Assembly (NCBI GenBank): GCA_963850995.1
Contig: CAWKNQ010000017.1
Location: 11,115 to 75,114 of the forward strand
Length of the DNA stretch: 64,000 nt
Direction of reading: 5' to 3'
Source: an uncultured Gaiellaceae bacterium
GTDB taxonomy: Bacteria > Actinomycetota > Thermoleophilia > Gaiellales > Gaiellaceae
The notes beneath the pieces were generated by a model. It saw nothing but the letters and a program-made list of their open reading frames with translations. It was not told the DNA's origin and made no database searches. Position numbers and translations under genes: made by a program. Positions 10,231 through 54,962 of this stretch are shown here, one piece after another. How positions within the stretch are numbered: the first letter of the stretch is position 1; every line of letters begins with the position of its first letter.

Positions 10231-11123
10231 CTCTCCACGCTAGCGGGAGACGCCGCCGCGGCGGCCGCCGCCTGGCGCGCGCCGTTTCCACGCGCTACTC
10301 CGGTGCCGAGCGCCACCCCGGCGAGCACGAGCGCGAGGCCGGCGAGCGCGATCCCCGTCACCTGCTCGTCGAGCAGGACCGCGCCGTAGACGAGCGCGAG
10401 CGCCGGCACGAGGTACGTCACGAGCACGGCCTTCGAGGCGCCCGCGCCCGCGATCAGGCCGAAGTAGAGGAGGTAGGCGGCGCCGGTGGCGGCCAGCCCG
10501 AGGTAGAGCACTGCGAGGAGTGACTCCCAGCCGGGCACCACGGCCTGCGCGGCCCCGAGGGGAAGCGTGAAGAGCGTCGCCCAGAGGAGCGTCCCGAAGG
10601 CGACGAGGGCGGGAGAGAGGCCGTTGAAGCGGCGGCCCGCATAGAGGCCGCCGATGCCGTACAACGCCGACGCCGCGACGACCGCCAGGCCGCCGACGAC
10701 CGCGCGCTCCCCGCCGCTGAGCTCGAAGCCCACGAGGAGCACGACGCCCGCGAAGCCGAGCAGGACGCCGGCGAGCCGCAGACCGGTGACCCGCTGGCCC
10801 CGGTCGATCGACAGGGCGAAGACCGCCGTGAAGAGCGGGGCGGAGGCGTTCAGGATCGCGGCGAGGCCGGAGTCGATGTACTGCTGGCCCCACGCGATCA
10901 GGAAGAACGGCAGCGCCGTATTGACGACGCCGAGCACGGCGAGCGGGCCGGCATAGGGACGGAGGGATGCGATCCGGTGGCCGGCGAGACGGATGTAGAC
11001 GGCGAGCGTCAGCGCGCCCGTCACGATCCGGAGCAGGATCACGGTCGCGGGGGCGAGGTCGCGCAAGGCGATCTCGATGAACATGAACGACGAGCCCCAG
11101 ATCGCCGCCAGCCCGAGCAGCAT
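10227..11123 (-). CDS. EamA/DMT-family transporter (tandem paralogue of 9328..10230)
   Basis: The 298-aa ORF reads MLLGLAAIWGSSFMFIEIALRDL...FFLIAWGQQYIDSGLAAILNASAPLF. It shares the WGEQYIDSGLAA motif with its neighbour and overlaps it by 4 nt. Confidence 0.85.
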   Translation of the reverse strand: MLLGLAAIWGSSFMFIEIALRDLAPATVILLRIVTGALTLAVYIRLAGHRIASLRPYAGPLAVLGVVNTALPFFLIAWGQQYIDSGLAAILNASAPLFTAVFALSIDRGQRVTGLRLAGVLLGFAGVVLLVGFELSGGERAVVGGLAVVAASALYGIGGLYAGRRFNGLSPALVAFGTLLWATLFTLPLGAAQAVVPGWESLLAVLYLGLAATGAAYLLYFGLIAGAGASKAVLVTYLVPALALVYGAVLLDEQVTGIALAGLALVLAGVALGTGVARGNGARQAAAAAAASPASVER

Positions 11124-11198
11124 CAGAACAGTGGCGACGGCTCATGCCTTCTCCCAACGCGGCGGCCGCCGTCGTGCTTCCCGACTAGACTGAATCAC

Positions 11199-13289
11199 CT
11201 GTCGCAGCTCGCGGAACAGCCGCTGCATCGCGCATTGGGCCTCACGGACCGCGAGTTGACGCGTATCGTCGAACTGCTCGGGCGCGAGCCGAACCACTTC
11301 GAGCTGGCGGTCTTCTCGCTCCTCTGGTCGGAGCACTGCGGCTACAAGCACTCGGCCCTCCTGCTGAAACGGCTTCCCTCCTCGGGGAAACGCGTGCTGC
11401 AGGGCCCCGGTGAGAATGCGGGCGTCCTCGATCTCGGCGACGGCGAGGCAGTCTGCTTCAAGGTCGAGAGCCACAACCACCCGTCCGCGGTCGAGCCCTT
11501 CCAGGGGGCGGCGACCGGGGTCGGAGGGATCCTGCGCGACGTGATCGCGATGGGCGCGCGGCCGATCGCGCTTCTCGACGGGCTCCGCTTCGCCGACGGC
11601 GACCCGCGTTTCGACCGTGCCGTCGCCGGGATCGGCGCCTACGGGAACTCGGTCGGCGTGCCGACGGTCGGCGGCGAGGCGGTCTTCGACGACACCTACC
11701 GCGACAACGTGCTCGTGAACGCGATGTGCGTCGGCCTCCTGCCCGCCGACCGCGTGACGCGCGCCGCTGCGAGCGGCCCCGGTCGGCTCGTCGTCCTCTA
11801 CGGCGCGACGACCGGCCGCGACGGGATCGGCGGGGCCTCGGTGCTGGCGAGCCAGGAGCTGGGCGAGGAGGACGCCGACAAGCGCCCAAGCGTCCAGGTC
11901 GGCGACCCGTTCACGGGCAAGCGGCTGATCGAGGTCTCGGTCGAGCTGGTCGAGTCGGGCCTCGTCGAGTCGCTCCAGGACTGCGGCGCGGCCGGCCTTG
12001 CCTCGTCGCTCTCGGAGATGGCACGCGACTGCGGGATCGACCTGCGCCTCGACCGGGTGCCGCTCCGCGAGGAGGGGATGGAGCCGTGGGAGGTGATGAT
12101 CTCCGAGAGCCAGGAACGGATGGTCGCCGTCGTCCGCCCCGAGATGCTCGACGCGGTCCTCGCCGTCTGCGACCGGTGGGAGCTCCACCGCGCCGTCGTC
12201 GGCGAGGTCACCGACAGCGGCCTCCTGCGCGCGCTCTGGGAGGACGAGGTCGTGGGCGAGATCCCGGCGCGCCTGCTCACCGACGAGTGCCCGCGCTACA
12301 CCGTCGAGCCGAAGCCGCGCGAGGAGCCAAGTAACAGTCTGTTACTTGGTGACGGTGACCGCCCGGCCCACACCGACGCGCTGCTCGAGCTGCTCGCGTC
12401 GCCGAACGTCCGCAGCCGCGAGCCGATCTACCGCCGCTACGACCATCTCGTCGGCTCCCGGACGGTTCGCCGCCCCGGCCTCGACGCTGCGGTGCTGCGG
12501 CTGCGGCCGGGCTACCGCGGCCTCGCCGTCTCGCTCGACGGCACGGGGCGGATGGGCCGCCTCGACCCGCGCACGGGCGGCGCGCTCGCCGTGCTCGAGG
12601 CAGCCCGCAACGTCGCCTGCACCGGCGCCGAGCCGCTGGGGCTGACCGATTGCCTCAACTTCGGCAACCCGGAGAAGGGGGAGATCGCCTGGGAGCTCGG
12701 TGAGTCGATCGAGGGGATCGCAGCGGCCTGCGAGGCGCTGCGCATCCCGGTCGTCTCCGGCAACGTCTCGCTCTACAACGAGACCGACGGACGCGCGATC
12801 GACCCGACCCCGGTCGTCGGCTGCGTCGGCCTGCTCGCGGACGTGCGACAGGTGCCGGGCGCCTGGCGCGAGGGCGACGTGATCCTGCTCGCGGGCGCCT
12901 CGCCGGTCGCGCTCGCGGGCTCCGAGTACCAGGCGCGCTACGGCGAGGTCGGCGGCCGCCCGGCGCGGCTCGACCTGGCGGCCGAGGCGGCGCTCGTCGA
13001 GTTCCTCTGGCGCGCGGCGCCGCAGTGCTCGCTCGTGCACGACGTCTCGCACGGCGGCCTCGCCGTCGCTCTCGCCGAGTCGGCGCTTCACTCCGAGCTG
13101 GGCGCGGACGTCGCGCTGCCGGAGGACCCGCGCGCCTGGTTCGGCGAGGGCGGCGGCCAGGCGGTGCTCGCCTGCGGGCCCGAGGTCGCGAACCGGCTCG
13201 GCGGCGTCCCGCTCCGGCGGCTCGGGGTCGTGGGCGGCGGGCGGCTGCTCGGACACGAGCTCGACGCGCTCAGGGACGCGTACTCCTGA
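11199..13289 (+). CDS. purL: Phosphoribosylformylglycinamidine synthase subunit PurL (FGAM synthase II)
   Basis: HRALGLTDRELTRIVELLGREPNHFELAVFSLLWSEHCGYKHS...ESHNHPSAVEPFQGAATGVGGILRD...GGASVLASQE.. is diagnostic. The start is uncertain: there is no ATG/GTG near the conserved N-terminus, and the candidates are CTG 11199 and TTG 11235. Confidence 0.9.
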   Translation: MSQLAEQPLHRALGLTDRELTRIVELLGREPNHFELAVFSLLWSEHCGYKHSALLLKRLPSSGKRVLQGPGENAGVLDLGDGEAVCFKVESHNHPSAVEPFQGAATGVGGILRDVIAMGARPIALLDGLRFADGDPRFDRAVAGIGAYGNSVGVPTVGGEAVFDDTYRDNVLVNAMCVGLLPADRVTRAAASGPGRLVVLYGATTGRDGIGGASVLASQELGEEDADKRPSVQVGDPFTGKRLIEVSVELVESGLVESLQDCGAAGLASSLSEMARDCGIDLRLDRVPLREEGMEPWEVMISESQERMVAVVRPEMLDAVLAVCDRWELHRAVVGEVTDSGLLRALWEDEVVGEIPARLLTDECPRYTVEPKPREEPSNSLLLGDGDRPAHTDALLELLASPNVRSREPIYRRYDHLVGSRTVRRPGLDAAVLRLRPGYRGLAVSLDGTGRMGRLDPRTGGALAVLEAARNVACTGAEPLGLTDCLNFGNPEKGEIAWELGESIEGIAAACEALRIPVVSGNVSLYNETDGRAIDPTPVVGCVGLLADVRQVPGAWREGDVILLAGASPVALAGSEYQARYGEVGGRPARLDLAAEAALVEFLWRAAPQCSLVHDVSHGGLAVALAESALHSELGADVALPEDPRAWFGEGGGQAVLACGPEVANRLGGVPLRRLGVVGGGRLLGHELDALRDAYS
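12327..12349. repeat. 23-bp low-GC perfect palindrome CCAAGTAACAGTCTGTTACTTGG (copy 1, central T), inside purL
   Basis: Read directly from the sequence. It is translated in frame as PSNSLLLG within a variable PurL linker. Confidence 0.9.
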
Positions 13290-26511: not shown

Positions 26512-26534
26512 CCAAGTAACAGACTGTTACTTGG
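26512..26534. repeat. 23-bp palindrome CCAAGTAACAGACTGTTACTTGG (copy 2, central A)
   Basis: Read directly. It lies 16 nt upstream of the deaminase ATG (26496) and contains the TAA stop (26527-26529, minus strand) of the esterase gene. Confidence 0.9.
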
Positions 26535-30836: not shown

Positions 30837-31725
30837 CCTCAAGAACGTCCTCGACGCTGCCGCTGCCGCTGCAGCGCTGGGCGAAGGGCTCCGGCGAGGC
30901 GGCGCGTCCGCCGTCGAGCTCCCGGTCGCGGACGGCGGCGAGGGGACCGCGGCAGTCCTGCACTCGGCGCTCGGCGGCGAGTGGCGCGAGGCGGACGTGC
31001 ACGACGCCTTCGGCCGCCCGTGCGCCGCGCGCTGGCTGCTCCTGCCGGAGGGTGAGGCCGTGGTCGAGGCGGCGGCCGCGATCCCGCTCGACCCGTCCCG
31101 GCTCGATCCGCTCGCCGCGTCGAGCCGCGGCTTCGGCGAGCTCGTCCTCGCGGCGCTCGCCGAGCGTCCTCGCTCGCTCCTGCGTCTGCCTCGGCGGCAC
31201 CGCGACGATGGACGCCGGCGCCGGCTTCCTCGAGCTCGTGCGCGAGCTTCCCGTGCCCGCGCGTGTCGCGTGCGACGTCCGGGCCACCCTTCTCGAGGCG
31301 CCGCGGCTCTTCGGCCCGCAAAAGGGCGCCGGTCCCGCCGAGGTGCTCGAGCTCGAGCGCCGGTTCGCCGCCCGGGGAGAGCTTGTGTTGTTTCAACACA
31401 AGCCCGGCTCCGGCGCCGCGGGTGGGCTCGGCGCGGCGCTCGCCTCGCTCGGCGCGAGCCTCGAGCCGGGCGCTCCGCTCGTCCTCGACAGCGTCGGCTT
31501 CGACCCGTCGGGCTACGACCTCGTCGTCACCGGCGAGGGCCGCGTCGACGCCACGACCTGGCTTGGCAAGGCGCCCGGCGAAGTCGTGCGCCGAGCCGCC
31601 GGCACCCGTTGTGTGATCTTCGGCGGCGTCGTCGAGGAGTCGCTCGCAGGCGTCGAGACGCACGCGCTTTCGGGCGATCCGGCGCGGGCGCGTGCCGACC
31701 TGGTGGCGCTCGGACCGAGACCTAA
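30811..31725 (+). pseudogene. Glycerate kinase with at least 2 frameshifts (~31180 and near the 3' end)
   Basis: VRALACPASLKNVLDA...ELPVADGGEGT...ASSRGFGELV is in the frame of ORF 30811... CLGGTATMDAGAGFLE...GSGAAGGLGAAL...DLVVTGEGRVDATTWLGKAPGEV is in the frame of the spurious ORF 29654..34051, which has no nearby stop. Confidence 0.7.
31381..31403. repeat. 23-nt low-GC hairpin GCTTGTGTTG-TTT-CAACACAAGC inside the glycerate kinase coding sequence
   Basis: Read directly: a 10-bp perfect stem with a 3-nt loop. It is translated in frame as ELVLFQHK immediately before the conserved PGSGAAGGLG motif. Confidence 0.85.
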
Positions 31726-51549: not shown

Positions 51550-52056
51550 TCACGAGCACGAGCTGCCACATGGGAGGCGAGCCGGCCACCAGGTCGGCGC
51601 GGCGGAACGCGTGCACGGCGAGCAGAAGCACGGCGATCCCGAGAGCGCAGCTCGCGCGAGCGCGACTGCGGCACGCCGGATGAGCAACGCGCCGACGGCG
51701 AGCACGATCGCGGCCAAGTAACAGACTGTTGCAAGGGTGAAGAGCGTCTCGAGCCCGGCCGGCGCTTTCCCCTCCGGCCACGGGGCGGGCGGGATATGCC
51801 GCTCGAGCCCCTGGACGAAGCCGAACACCGTGACGATGCCGAAGAGAACGAAGAGCGCGGCGAGCCGCGGGTGCGGCCTCGGGGCGAGCTCGTTGAAGCG
51901 CGCGGCCACCTCCTCGGTCGTGCCGAAGCGCTCCATCGCCTCCTGGTCGCCGCCGTCGTCCAGCAGGTGCGCCTCCACCTCCGCCAGGATCCGGCGCCTG
52001 CGCCACGGGGAGACGCGAAGCTGCGCGGCGAGGGCGGCGAGGTAGTTGTTGATCAC
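51550..52056 (-). CDS. PadR-associated membrane protein (DUF1700-like N-terminus); C-terminal part probably frameshifted near ~51650
   Basis: A GTG at 52056 overlaps the PadR stop (GTGA). INNYLAALAAQLRVSPWRRRRILAEVEAHLLD is followed by TM segments. After ...AVALARA a better TM-like continuation (ALGIAVLLLAVHAF...) lies in another frame. Confidence 0.5.
   Translation of the reverse strand: MINNYLAALAAQLRVSPWRRRRILAEVEAHLLDDGGDQEAMERFGTTEEVAARFNELAPRPHPRLAALFVLFGIVTVFGFVQGLERHIPPAPWPEGKAPAGLETLFTLATVCYLAAIVLAVGALLIRRAAVALARAALSGSPCFCSPCTRSAAPTWWPARLPCGSSCS
51713..51735. repeat. Degenerate copy of the 23-bp palindrome (CCAAGTAACAGACTGTTGCAAGG, 3 mismatches in one arm)
   Basis: Read directly. 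It lies inside the membrane-protein coding sequence and is translated as LATVCYL within a predicted TM helix. Confidence 0.8.
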
Positions 52057-54350: not shown

Positions 54351-54947
54351 TTGCGGCTCGCGCTCGACTGGGACGGGACGGTGACCGTCGAGGACTCGCT
54401 CGTGCGGGTGATCCACGAGTTCGGCGATCCCGCCTTGCTCGCCGAGCTCGAGCCGAGAGTCGGCGTCGACCTGACGCTGCACGAGGAGATCGCGCTCGAG
54501 TTCGCCTCGATCACCGCCCCGCTCGAGCAGGTCGTGAGCTGGGTGGTCGCGCACATCGAGGTGCGGGACGGGCTGCACGAGCTCGCCGAGCGCCACCGCC
54601 CGCTCGTGATCTCGGCCGGATTCGAGGAGCTGATCGAGCCCGTGCTCGCCCGGGAAGGCGTGCAGCTCGAGCTGATCGCGAACCGCGTCGAGGCTCGCCG
54701 GGAGGGCTGGCGCGTGCACTTCCGCGACGAGTCCGCCTGCGCTACCTGCGGCGAGCCGTGCAAGCGCGCCGGCCTCTCCGGCGAGCCGTACACGTACGTC
54801 GGGGACGGCTACTCCGACCGCTGCGCGGCGCTCGCCGCCGACCGCGTCTTCGCCCGTGACGGGCTCGCCCGCTACCTCGACGAGCGCGGCGTCGCCTACG
54901 AGCCCTTCGACGATCTTCGCGACGTCGCGGCCGCGTTGGCCAAGTAA
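54351..54947 (+). CDS. HAD-superfamily hydrolase (PSP/MtnX-like subfamily)
   Basis: TTG start. LALDWDGTVT (DxDxT) ...VISAGF...YVGDGYSDRCAA is present. The TAA stop lies inside the palindrome at 54940-54962. Confidence 0.7.
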   Translation: MRLALDWDGTVTVEDSLVRVIHEFGDPALLAELEPRVGVDLTLHEEIALEFASITAPLEQVVSWVVAHIEVRDGLHELAERHRPLVISAGFEELIEPVLAREGVQLELIANRVEARREGWRVHFRDESACATCGEPCKRAGLSGEPYTYVGDGYSDRCAALAADRVFARDGLARYLDERGVAYEPFDDLRDVAAALAK

Positions 54948-54962
54948 CAGACTGTTACTTGG
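54940..54962. repeat. 23-bp palindrome CCAAGTAACAGACTGTTACTTGG (copy 4, central A)
   Basis: Read directly. It supplies ...GCC AAG TAA (AK*) to the HAD gene and lies ~130 nt upstream of the sugar-binding-protein gene. Confidence 0.9.

Follow-up and report, generated by a model that had tools for sequence, protein, structure and literature searches.

How does an AT-rich, perfectly palindromic word come to lie within the reading frame of purL in a high-GC actinobacterium, and what maintains it there? The palindrome in question, CCAAGTAACAGTCTGTTACTTGG, is of the form 11-1-11 and occupies positions 12327–12349 of the window, by which we mean the whole 64,000-nucleotide stretch analysed here (contig CAWKNQ010000017.1); the genome holding it (G000) is a Gaiellaceae metagenome-assembled genome (MAG) of 3.33 Mb that is 85% complete and has a GC content of 70.6%. 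We find that it is one copy of a repeat family, which we call F1, and we think it somewhat probable that F1 is a dispersed palindrome resembling repetitive extragenic palindromes (REPs) or Rickettsia palindromic elements (RPEs) and maintained by a sequence-specific trans-acting factor. The gene and the copy within it are as follows.

11190..13289, plus strand: purL (FGAM synthase II), homology-supported span; the listed open reading frame (ORF) starts at 10977
12327..12349, plus strand: F1 copy in purL, giving PSNSLLLG in frame within the linker between PurL domains

The initial annotation described the palindrome as translated in frame as PSNSLLLG, and closer analysis bears this out. The PurL ORF (10977–13289, with homology beginning at about 11190) is the sole long frame around the palindrome with a high GC content at third codon positions (GC3), and its codons there are CCA AGT AAC AGT CTG TTA CTT GG. 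This frame is free of stops, as had been noted, and so is the second (QVTVCYL), while the third contains AAG TAA, the one TAA that had been reported. The product has the Pfam FGAR-AT_linker, AIRS and AIRS_C domains and matches the Thermus thermophilus PurL (PDB 3VIU) with an E value of 3.7e-174; domain limits were taken from the Pfam boundaries and the 3VIU alignment. PSNSLLLG corresponds to residues ~380–387 of the 699-aa translation (from 11190), C-terminal to the first AIRS_C domain (residues 197–347) and N-terminal to the conserved ALLELLASPNV..YRRYD block, and it thus lies in the linker joining the two halves of PurL, in agreement with its earlier placement in a poorly conserved linker before that block. 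The palindrome is not an assembly artefact: it is present at the identical purL position in independent MAGs, and contigs from four unrelated soil metagenome runs cross it unchanged, joined to purL flanks, with not a single variant letter within 12327–12349 and many in the flanks. We infer that the copy rides in a flexible linker between domains as a tolerated passenger, and that it is not an adaptation of the enzyme.

F1 is dispersed through G000, and only a single genus carries it. Its unit, perfectly palindromic and 23–25 bp in length, is g-CCAAGTAACAG-W-CTGTTACTTGG-c, with a GC content of ~35% and a symmetric consensus (gCCAAGTAACAGWCTGTTACTTGGc). There are 42 sites in G000 with the core AACAGWCTGTT, 22 of which are perfect 23-mers, and 35 copies have no more than three mismatches; half-sites occur essentially only within full palindromes (50 strand-wise counts, ~25 palindromes). 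Among 159 distinct copies across relatives the 23 bp are conserved, with a G preceding in 67% and a C following in 62%, and beyond this one base on each side the flanks have background composition, so that a longer hidden element is ruled out; the ends of the copies are sharp and their flanks unrelated. The central base is T or A in a ratio of 84:76 among distinct copies. The 37 genomes of the genus contain between 0 and 34 copies each at no more than one mismatch, no copy occurs in 24 genomes drawn from four further families of the order, and all matches across the GTDB species genomes are in Gaiellaceae, Thermoleophilia or Actinomycetota MAGs.

The copies sit at tolerated places, either convergent gene ends, where they often supply stop codons, or variable linkers and loops, where they are read in frame. 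About 19 of the 42 G000 sites have a plus-strand gene to the left and a minus-strand gene to the right, and at least eight genes terminate on a TAA within an F1 arm (...GCC AAG TAA, giving ...AK*); at some sites both convergent genes stop inside a single palindrome. Approximately one quarter of the sites are intragenic, and at least five recognisable genes translate F1 in the frame used in purL, yielding PSN(S/R)LL(L/Q)G: purL itself and the genes for a 1071-aa dnaE2-like polymerase, a biotin carboxylase/biotin carboxyl carrier protein, a 1430-aa Lhr-like helicase and a glycosyltransferase-like protein. Divergent sites number one by automated call and one by eye (C14:107499, upstream of rpmB).

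The second of these is an F1 variant (CCTAGT..ACTAGG) located ~20 nt before the GTG start codon of rpmB, which encodes ribosomal protein L28; it is kept in the genomes G006 (the closest relative of G000) and G002, and is among the very few promoter-proximal copies. We also note that at C13:499548 the homology of G000 to G006 (C2:207037-208198) and G002 (C2:61017-62178) stops exactly at the F1 edge, with ~900 bp more DNA in the latter two, and that several further synteny breaks coincide with palindrome edges.

The question of whether the palindrome was inserted into purL can be addressed through the length of the linker, which we compared in an alignment of purL sequences from 19 genus and 10 outgroup genomes. 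From RY to ALLELL there are 26 residues here, 25–28 in members of four further families of this order, and 27 in the Thermus 3VIU protein, which aligns across PSNSLLLG without a gap; the proposal of an insertion of about eight codons, requiring an extra nucleotide to restore the frame, therefore fails. Nor do unrelated actinobacteria have the same residues encoded by GC-rich DNA, which the initial annotation had named as the sign of an ancestral segment; outgroups have the same length and different residues. Within the genus the copy is perfect in five species, has 2–4 mismatches in L007, L016 and L017, and takes the form of a GCAAC..GTTGC variant with 5–7 mismatches in L009, L024 and L027, and the basal clade has the palindrome at 2–3 mismatches. 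In five species the linker is 9 nt shorter, and these are nested among carriers on the purL tree. The alignment thus does not yield the lineage-specific indel that had been anticipated, as the copy is genus-wide and includes the basal clade; from this distribution it is as old as the genus.

Other coding sites behave similarly. The accA-like site is equal in length to the outgroups or shorter, the dnaE2-like site is 6 nt longer, and two further sites give 23 versus 17 nt and 23 versus 14 nt for filled and empty forms, so that net length changes are 0, +6 or +9 nt; at none of the coding sites compared did we find a 23–25 nt insertion equal to the element. The palindrome thus occupies existing variable codons, and there is no missing nucleotide to account for.

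The purL frame of several MAGs of the genus is broken at or beside the palindrome position (L027 (G011), L024 (G024), G019, G009, G021 and G010); L027, for example, has CCTAGTCAACAGACTGTTGCAAAG, with one extra base. Such breaks may be real frameshifts, or they may have arisen where the assembly of long-read MAGs went wrong at palindromes.

Comparison of orthologous sites shows long-term identity at fixed positions, replacement by other palindrome families, and genome-wide loss in independent lineages. The purL copy is identical at 23 of 23 positions in five species from three clades whose loci are 84–95% identical overall, and the adjacent 30 nt of linker DNA in these species are 79% (upstream) and 63% (downstream) identical. 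At the dnaE2-like site F1 is present in all 21 of the 21 genus genomes, even though the codons that make it up end in A or T and are rare at a GC3 of ~0.9. Change, where it occurs, can be abrupt: at purL, L002 is perfect whereas its sister L003 has eight mismatches, on branches of ~0.03, and L004 is perfect whereas in its sister L008 the palindrome is of another sequence, CCAAGTGTTTCCGAAACACAAGG, and L010 has yet another. The accA-like codons are occupied by F1 in 11 species, by the family F3 in one, by F4 in three and by other palindromes in four, and no outgroup has a palindrome there. Replacement extends to intergenic DNA, with other hairpins in place of F1 at two intergenic sites in G006, and a GC-rich terminator-like hairpin in place of the copy at C14:206121 in both G006 and G002. 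In comparisons with these two genomes a block of ~90 nt holding an F1 doublet is either wholly present or wholly missing, and doublet and singlet differ by 55–56 nt. G013 and G017, which come from different clades, have no F1, and 0 of 15 examined orthologous sites are intact in them, with decay mainly from AT to GC; an appearance of compensatory change in these genomes is explained by parallel AT-to-GC transitions on both arms. G042 is a further, independent F1-null genome. Finally, the central base swaps between A and T in about five of 19 orthologous comparisons and almost never becomes G or C, a pattern expected of inversion or of recopying in either orientation.

The explanation that we favor for these observations is that a sequence-specific trans-acting factor keeps or rewrites F1 sites. 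The most likely candidate is a protein that reads the palindrome, either in duplex form or folded into a hairpin, and that would drive copying or conversion between F1 copies in either orientation; loss of the factor would leave all copies to be eroded by AT-to-GC mutation pressure. At gene ends the hairpin, with a predicted folding energy of -14.6 kcal/mol, may also serve as a 3′-end or terminator-like structure.

Several results count against this explanation. We found no mobilising enzyme for F1; of the 33 Y1_Tnp/RAYT-like loci in the genus (three in G000 and 30 others; RAYT, REP-associated tyrosine transposase) none has F1 nearby, and the number of Y1 genes in a genome is no guide to its number of F1 copies. 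There is no target-site duplication in any filled-versus-empty comparison. F1 contains neither the GTAG nor the CGTC tag of REPs, although a second family, F2, does contain CGTC, and with at most 34 copies at no more than one mismatch it falls short of REPs, which typically exceed 100 per genome and number in the hundreds. Third positions within the dnaE2 copy are conserved at 0.73 against 0.71 in the flanks (simple identity), and the argument for constraint thus depends on A/T-ending codons having been retained and on how the null genomes differ. Positions 3, 4, 20 and 21 of F1 vary between A and T only, often on one arm and thereby breaking the pairing, a pattern that fits recognition of the duplex by a protein better than recognition of a hairpin. 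Lastly, the spacings of doublets across relatives peak at 53–57, 66–67 and 75–79 bp with unconserved spacers, which suggests, in place of a mobile doublet, a constraint on phasing such as cooperative protein binding typically imposes.

The G000 genome itself has seven doublets with a spacing of 53–56 bp, the spacers being GC-rich and sharing no sequence.

C4:448973/449028, C4:570842/570895, C13:53024/53080 and C14:49637/49691: F1 doublets in G000
C18:111173/111228, C19:48613/48669 and C26:153539/153594: the remaining F1 doublets in G000

Both copies of a doublet usually share the central base, and as RNA the two can pair with one another in a long hairpin of -36 kcal/mol.

A link to RAYT/Y1 transposases is rejected, given that F1 is not found beside Y1 genes and the counts are unrelated. 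Palindromes beside Y1 loci, where present, are GC-rich, of the F2 or another type, and all three Y1_Tnp genes of G000 are immediately preceded by one that is GC-rich and of the F2 type; at one gene its arms match perfectly (GGACACGTCCGGGGAC-A-GTCCCCGGACGTGTCC), and at the other two they are 73–89% complementary.

C14:211659-211691: F2 palindrome at a Y1_Tnp gene
L032 1379-1417: F2 palindrome at a Y1_Tnp gene
L033 1370-1422: F2 palindrome at a Y1_Tnp gene

F2 is long and contains CGTC, with the core GTCCGGGGAC-W-GTCCCCGGAC, and ~10 short copies lie elsewhere; together with the Y1_Tnp genes it looks like a separate, classical REP-RAYT system.

Another possibility, though an unlikely one, is that F1 sites are duplex binding sites of a genus-specific dimeric protein under purifying selection, for example a chromosome-organising address protein of the kind that reads matS, Noc-binding (NBS) or SlmA-binding (SBS) sites, or a transcription roadblock; gene ends and linkers would then be the only places that tolerate a 23-bp AT-rich word. 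Like parS, matS, Noc and SlmA sites, F1 comprises tens of palindromes per genome, often intragenic and at the same positions in relatives, and the conservation of positions across the genus (dnaE2 at 21/21), the genome-wide loss in two independent lineages, the lack of a transposase link and the lack of target duplication are all consistent with such sites. The acceptance of either A or T at positions 3, 4, 20, 21 and the centre, regardless of pairing, recalls minor-groove readout, and the doublet peaks near 55, 66 and 77 bp lie about one helical turn apart; some of the doublets counted are orthologous, however, so that the periodicity rests on few independent cases. It is also hard to see how 40 identical 23-bp words at unrelated loci could be built by point mutation, and the replacement of F1 by other families at the same codons would mean that binding proteins were exchanged. 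Such replacement is not, to our knowledge, a feature of chromosomal address sites, which are moreover short (12–16 bp) and degenerate, unlike the 23 bp of F1. With one or two of the 42 sites in divergent promoter regions, F1 is not a classical operator set. The parS, matS, Noc and SlmA sites depend on one binding protein, as F1 would.

ParB and parS were considered specifically and rejected. F1 is unlike parS (TGTTTCACGTGAAACA); most of the genomes searched, F1-null ones among them, have one ParB_N gene, and the few that lack it or have several show no relation to F1. No canonical parS TGTTTCACGTGAAACA was found at no more than two mismatches in the 85%-complete G000. We note in this context that an F1 variant, CCAAGCAACAGACTGTTACAAGG, lies in frame in a gene resembling rsmG ~3 kb upstream of the single parB (C4:470990; C4:473854-474132), and that the half-sites of F3 (TGTTTC/GAAACA) are those of parS, but with a centre of 1 nt instead of 4 nt.

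It is also conceivable, though quite improbable, that F1 copies are selected RNA hairpins, acting at convergent ends as two-way 3′-end or terminator structures with sequence identity being secondary; within genes, the combination of a rare-codon cluster and a hairpin at domain boundaries would slow translation or mark sites of mRNA processing. The RNA hairpin is stable (z = -5.5 at the folding energy given above), copies are enriched between convergent genes and overlap stop codons, the intragenic ones lie in interdomain linkers, and different hairpin families occur at the same codons, with the terminator-like hairpin at C14:206121 as a further instance of exchange. The 3′-end positions, the exchange with other hairpins and the fold energy favor recognition as a hairpin. 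However, a structural role does not require 40 loci in many species to be identical at 23 of 23 positions, pairs are commonly broken by A/T changes on one side only, and some species have no hairpin at all at the purL site; the genome-wide loss of one sequence family would likewise be unexpected if any hairpin could serve. A scan for intrinsic terminators or promoters around the purL copy found none, and there is no U-tract after the hairpin. Compensatory changes in F1 number 33, against 4.4 for random placement, but the excess is confined to pair 3/21 and one-sided changes are many, so that a hairpin constraint is not established.

That F1 was recently inserted into purL in the manner of an RPE, as the 23-bp element plus or minus one base, is very improbable: F1 does belong to a dispersed family, the unit and one flanking G/C would make 24 nt or eight codons, and the linker is 9 nt shorter in some species of the genus, but here it is as long as that of outgroups, the copy is genus-wide with the short-linker species nested among carriers, and no coding site differs by +24 nt.

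Other known types of repeat were considered and set aside. F1 is not a miniature inverted-repeat transposable element (MITE), the hallmarks of which are terminal inverted repeats around an internal region together with a target-site duplication, as the whole unit is the palindrome and filled-versus-empty comparisons give no target duplication. DNA uptake sequences and uptake signal sequences (DUS/USS) are short motifs that occur singly, hundreds to thousands of times, and only a subset of them form inverted pairs, whereas F1 half-sites are essentially not found alone and ~40 copies are too few. An operator set for a transcription factor, which would lie in promoter or 5′ regions and show graded conservation, is rejected in view of the one or two divergent/promoter sites, the location of most copies at 3′ ends or within genes, and the 22 of 42 that are perfect. 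A phage origin is rejected, there being no exact match in the IMG/VR viral contigs, and so is a known RNA family, there being no Rfam hit in the window.

Returning to the trans-acting factor that we favor, F1 can be compared with the systems it most resembles. It is similar to REPs, which are palindromes of 20–40 bp, in being a 23–25 bp unit at 42 unrelated loci, mostly downstream of genes, with ends that donate stops and some intragenic copies in loops or linkers, and in that several palindrome families coexist in one genome. REPs in Proteobacteria lie between convergent and same-direction genes and donate stop codons, their intragenic copies are found notably in replication and repair genes including those for error-prone polymerases, and different REPs occupy the same recB site in two Xanthomonas species (Di Nocera et al. 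2013; PMC3733652). F1 departs from REPs in being perfect, symmetric and AT-rich in a GC-rich actinobacterium, in having no RAYT gene flanked by it and no conserved doublet spacer, and in that the related F3 and F4 are mostly intragenic. The initial annotation knew of no report of such elements in high-GC Gram-positive bacteria; our literature search for comparable repeats in Gaiella or Actinomycetota likewise found nothing, but intragenic REPs have been described in Proteobacteria.

The likeness to RPEs, the classic example of repeats read in frame, is a partial one. Like RPEs, F1 is tolerated in frame in functional, often essential genes at linker or surface positions, and the earlier suggestion of an RPE-like tolerated insertion stands to the extent that F1 is a dispersed repeat read in frame in several genes, but not as regards a net insertion. 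RPEs are ~100–150 bp long and are true insertions that add 30–50 residues, whereas F1 is 23 bp long and encodes eight residues; its host, unlike those of RPEs, is a free-living high-GC soil actinobacterium. REPIN-RAYT systems (REPIN, REP doublet forming a hairpin) are characterized by a single-copy Y1 gene flanked by the same repeat and by a mobile doublet with a conserved spacer. F1 resembles these in being vertically inherited, lineage-specific and long-persisting, in the form of both singlets and doublets, and they depend on a trans-acting factor, as F1 would; it differs in having no cognate Y1 transposase, the RAYT-like genes adjoining the GC-rich F2 instead.

The window contains further members of F1, with seven strand-wise matches against 0.00 expected from 100 shuffles, including two other perfect copies (at 26512 and 54940) that differ from the purL copy in the central base only, together with a copy of F4.

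26512..26534, no strand assigned: perfect F1 copy, centre A on the plus strand, with minus-strand coding signal on both sides
31381..31403, plus strand: F4 copy GCTTGTGTTGTTTCAACACAAGC, in frame as ELVLFQHK in a glycerate kinase gene
51714..51736, minus strand: F1 variant CCAAGTAACAGACTGTTGCAAGG with three mismatches, read in the second frame (..TLATVCYLAAIV..) within a membrane-protein gene
54940..54962, plus strand: perfect F1 copy, the left-arm TAA of which terminates a plus-strand gene (...AAALAK*)

The copy at 26512 is kept in G006 with its central base flipped.

Several other palindrome families are present in the genome. F3 (CTTGTGTTTC-W-GAAACACAAG) and F4 (CTTGTGTTG-NNN-CAACACAAG) are AT-rich hairpins of 21–23 nt that have an outer CTTGT..ACAAG in common with F1 variants. 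Most of their copies lie within genes and are translated in frame, as ..LVFQKHK.., ..LVLEQHK.. or ..CVSETQG.., usually at linkers, and their hosts, as judged by eye, include genes for NAD synthetase, anthranilate synthase (TrpE), SelB, glycerate kinase (31381-31403), acyl-CoA synthetase and phosphomannomutase, as well as an E2 acyltransferase with two copies, in its linkers. In-frame AT-rich palindromes are thus general in this genome (~17 genes) and not peculiar to purL.

C3:55200, C3:55418, C4:176395, C4:671780, C4:671932 and C4:765274: F3/F4 sites
C5:15083, C14:190825, C23:46173, C26:25739, C26:124154 and window 31381-31403: the remaining F3/F4 sites

The F5 palindrome, CATGGGGGAA(A/C)C..GGTTCCCCCATG, has ATG/CAT at both ends and often occurs as pairs ~45 bp apart, and F6 has 16 members of the form GC(G/C)CCGATAGC-loop-GCTATCGG(C/G)GC, with loops of the TTCG or GAAG type.

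C4:323606, 461231, 470551, 492597 and 492642; C5:9753 and 9802: F5/F6 sites
C19:124992; C22:125559; C23:60851 and 60899: the remaining listed F5/F6 sites

These observations extend intragenic short palindromic repeats, known from Rickettsia and some Proteobacteria, to an uncultured high-GC actinobacterial lineage, one in which dozens of related MAGs allow single sites to be followed through time. They go beyond tolerated insertion, in that existing codons are occupied, families are exchanged at the same codons in sister species, and loss is genome-wide in independent lineages. F1 creates real AT-rich patches of rare codons and shared ...AK* gene ends that annotation pipelines could misread as errors, and the repeats coincide with apparent frameshifts in some MAG assemblies. 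In the most far-reaching interpretation, which we regard as rather improbable, the genus would possess an undescribed sequence-specific system that both writes and keeps identical 23-bp palindromes at fixed sites, some of them within essential genes (purL, dnaE2 and accA among these), overwriting codons in frame, flipping orientation and exchanging families; this would amount to a new machinery for templated DNA conversion or a new address-site system, the loss of which leads to genome-wide decay. The results point to a sequence-specific trans-acting factor, which could be found by comparing F1-rich with F1-null genomes.

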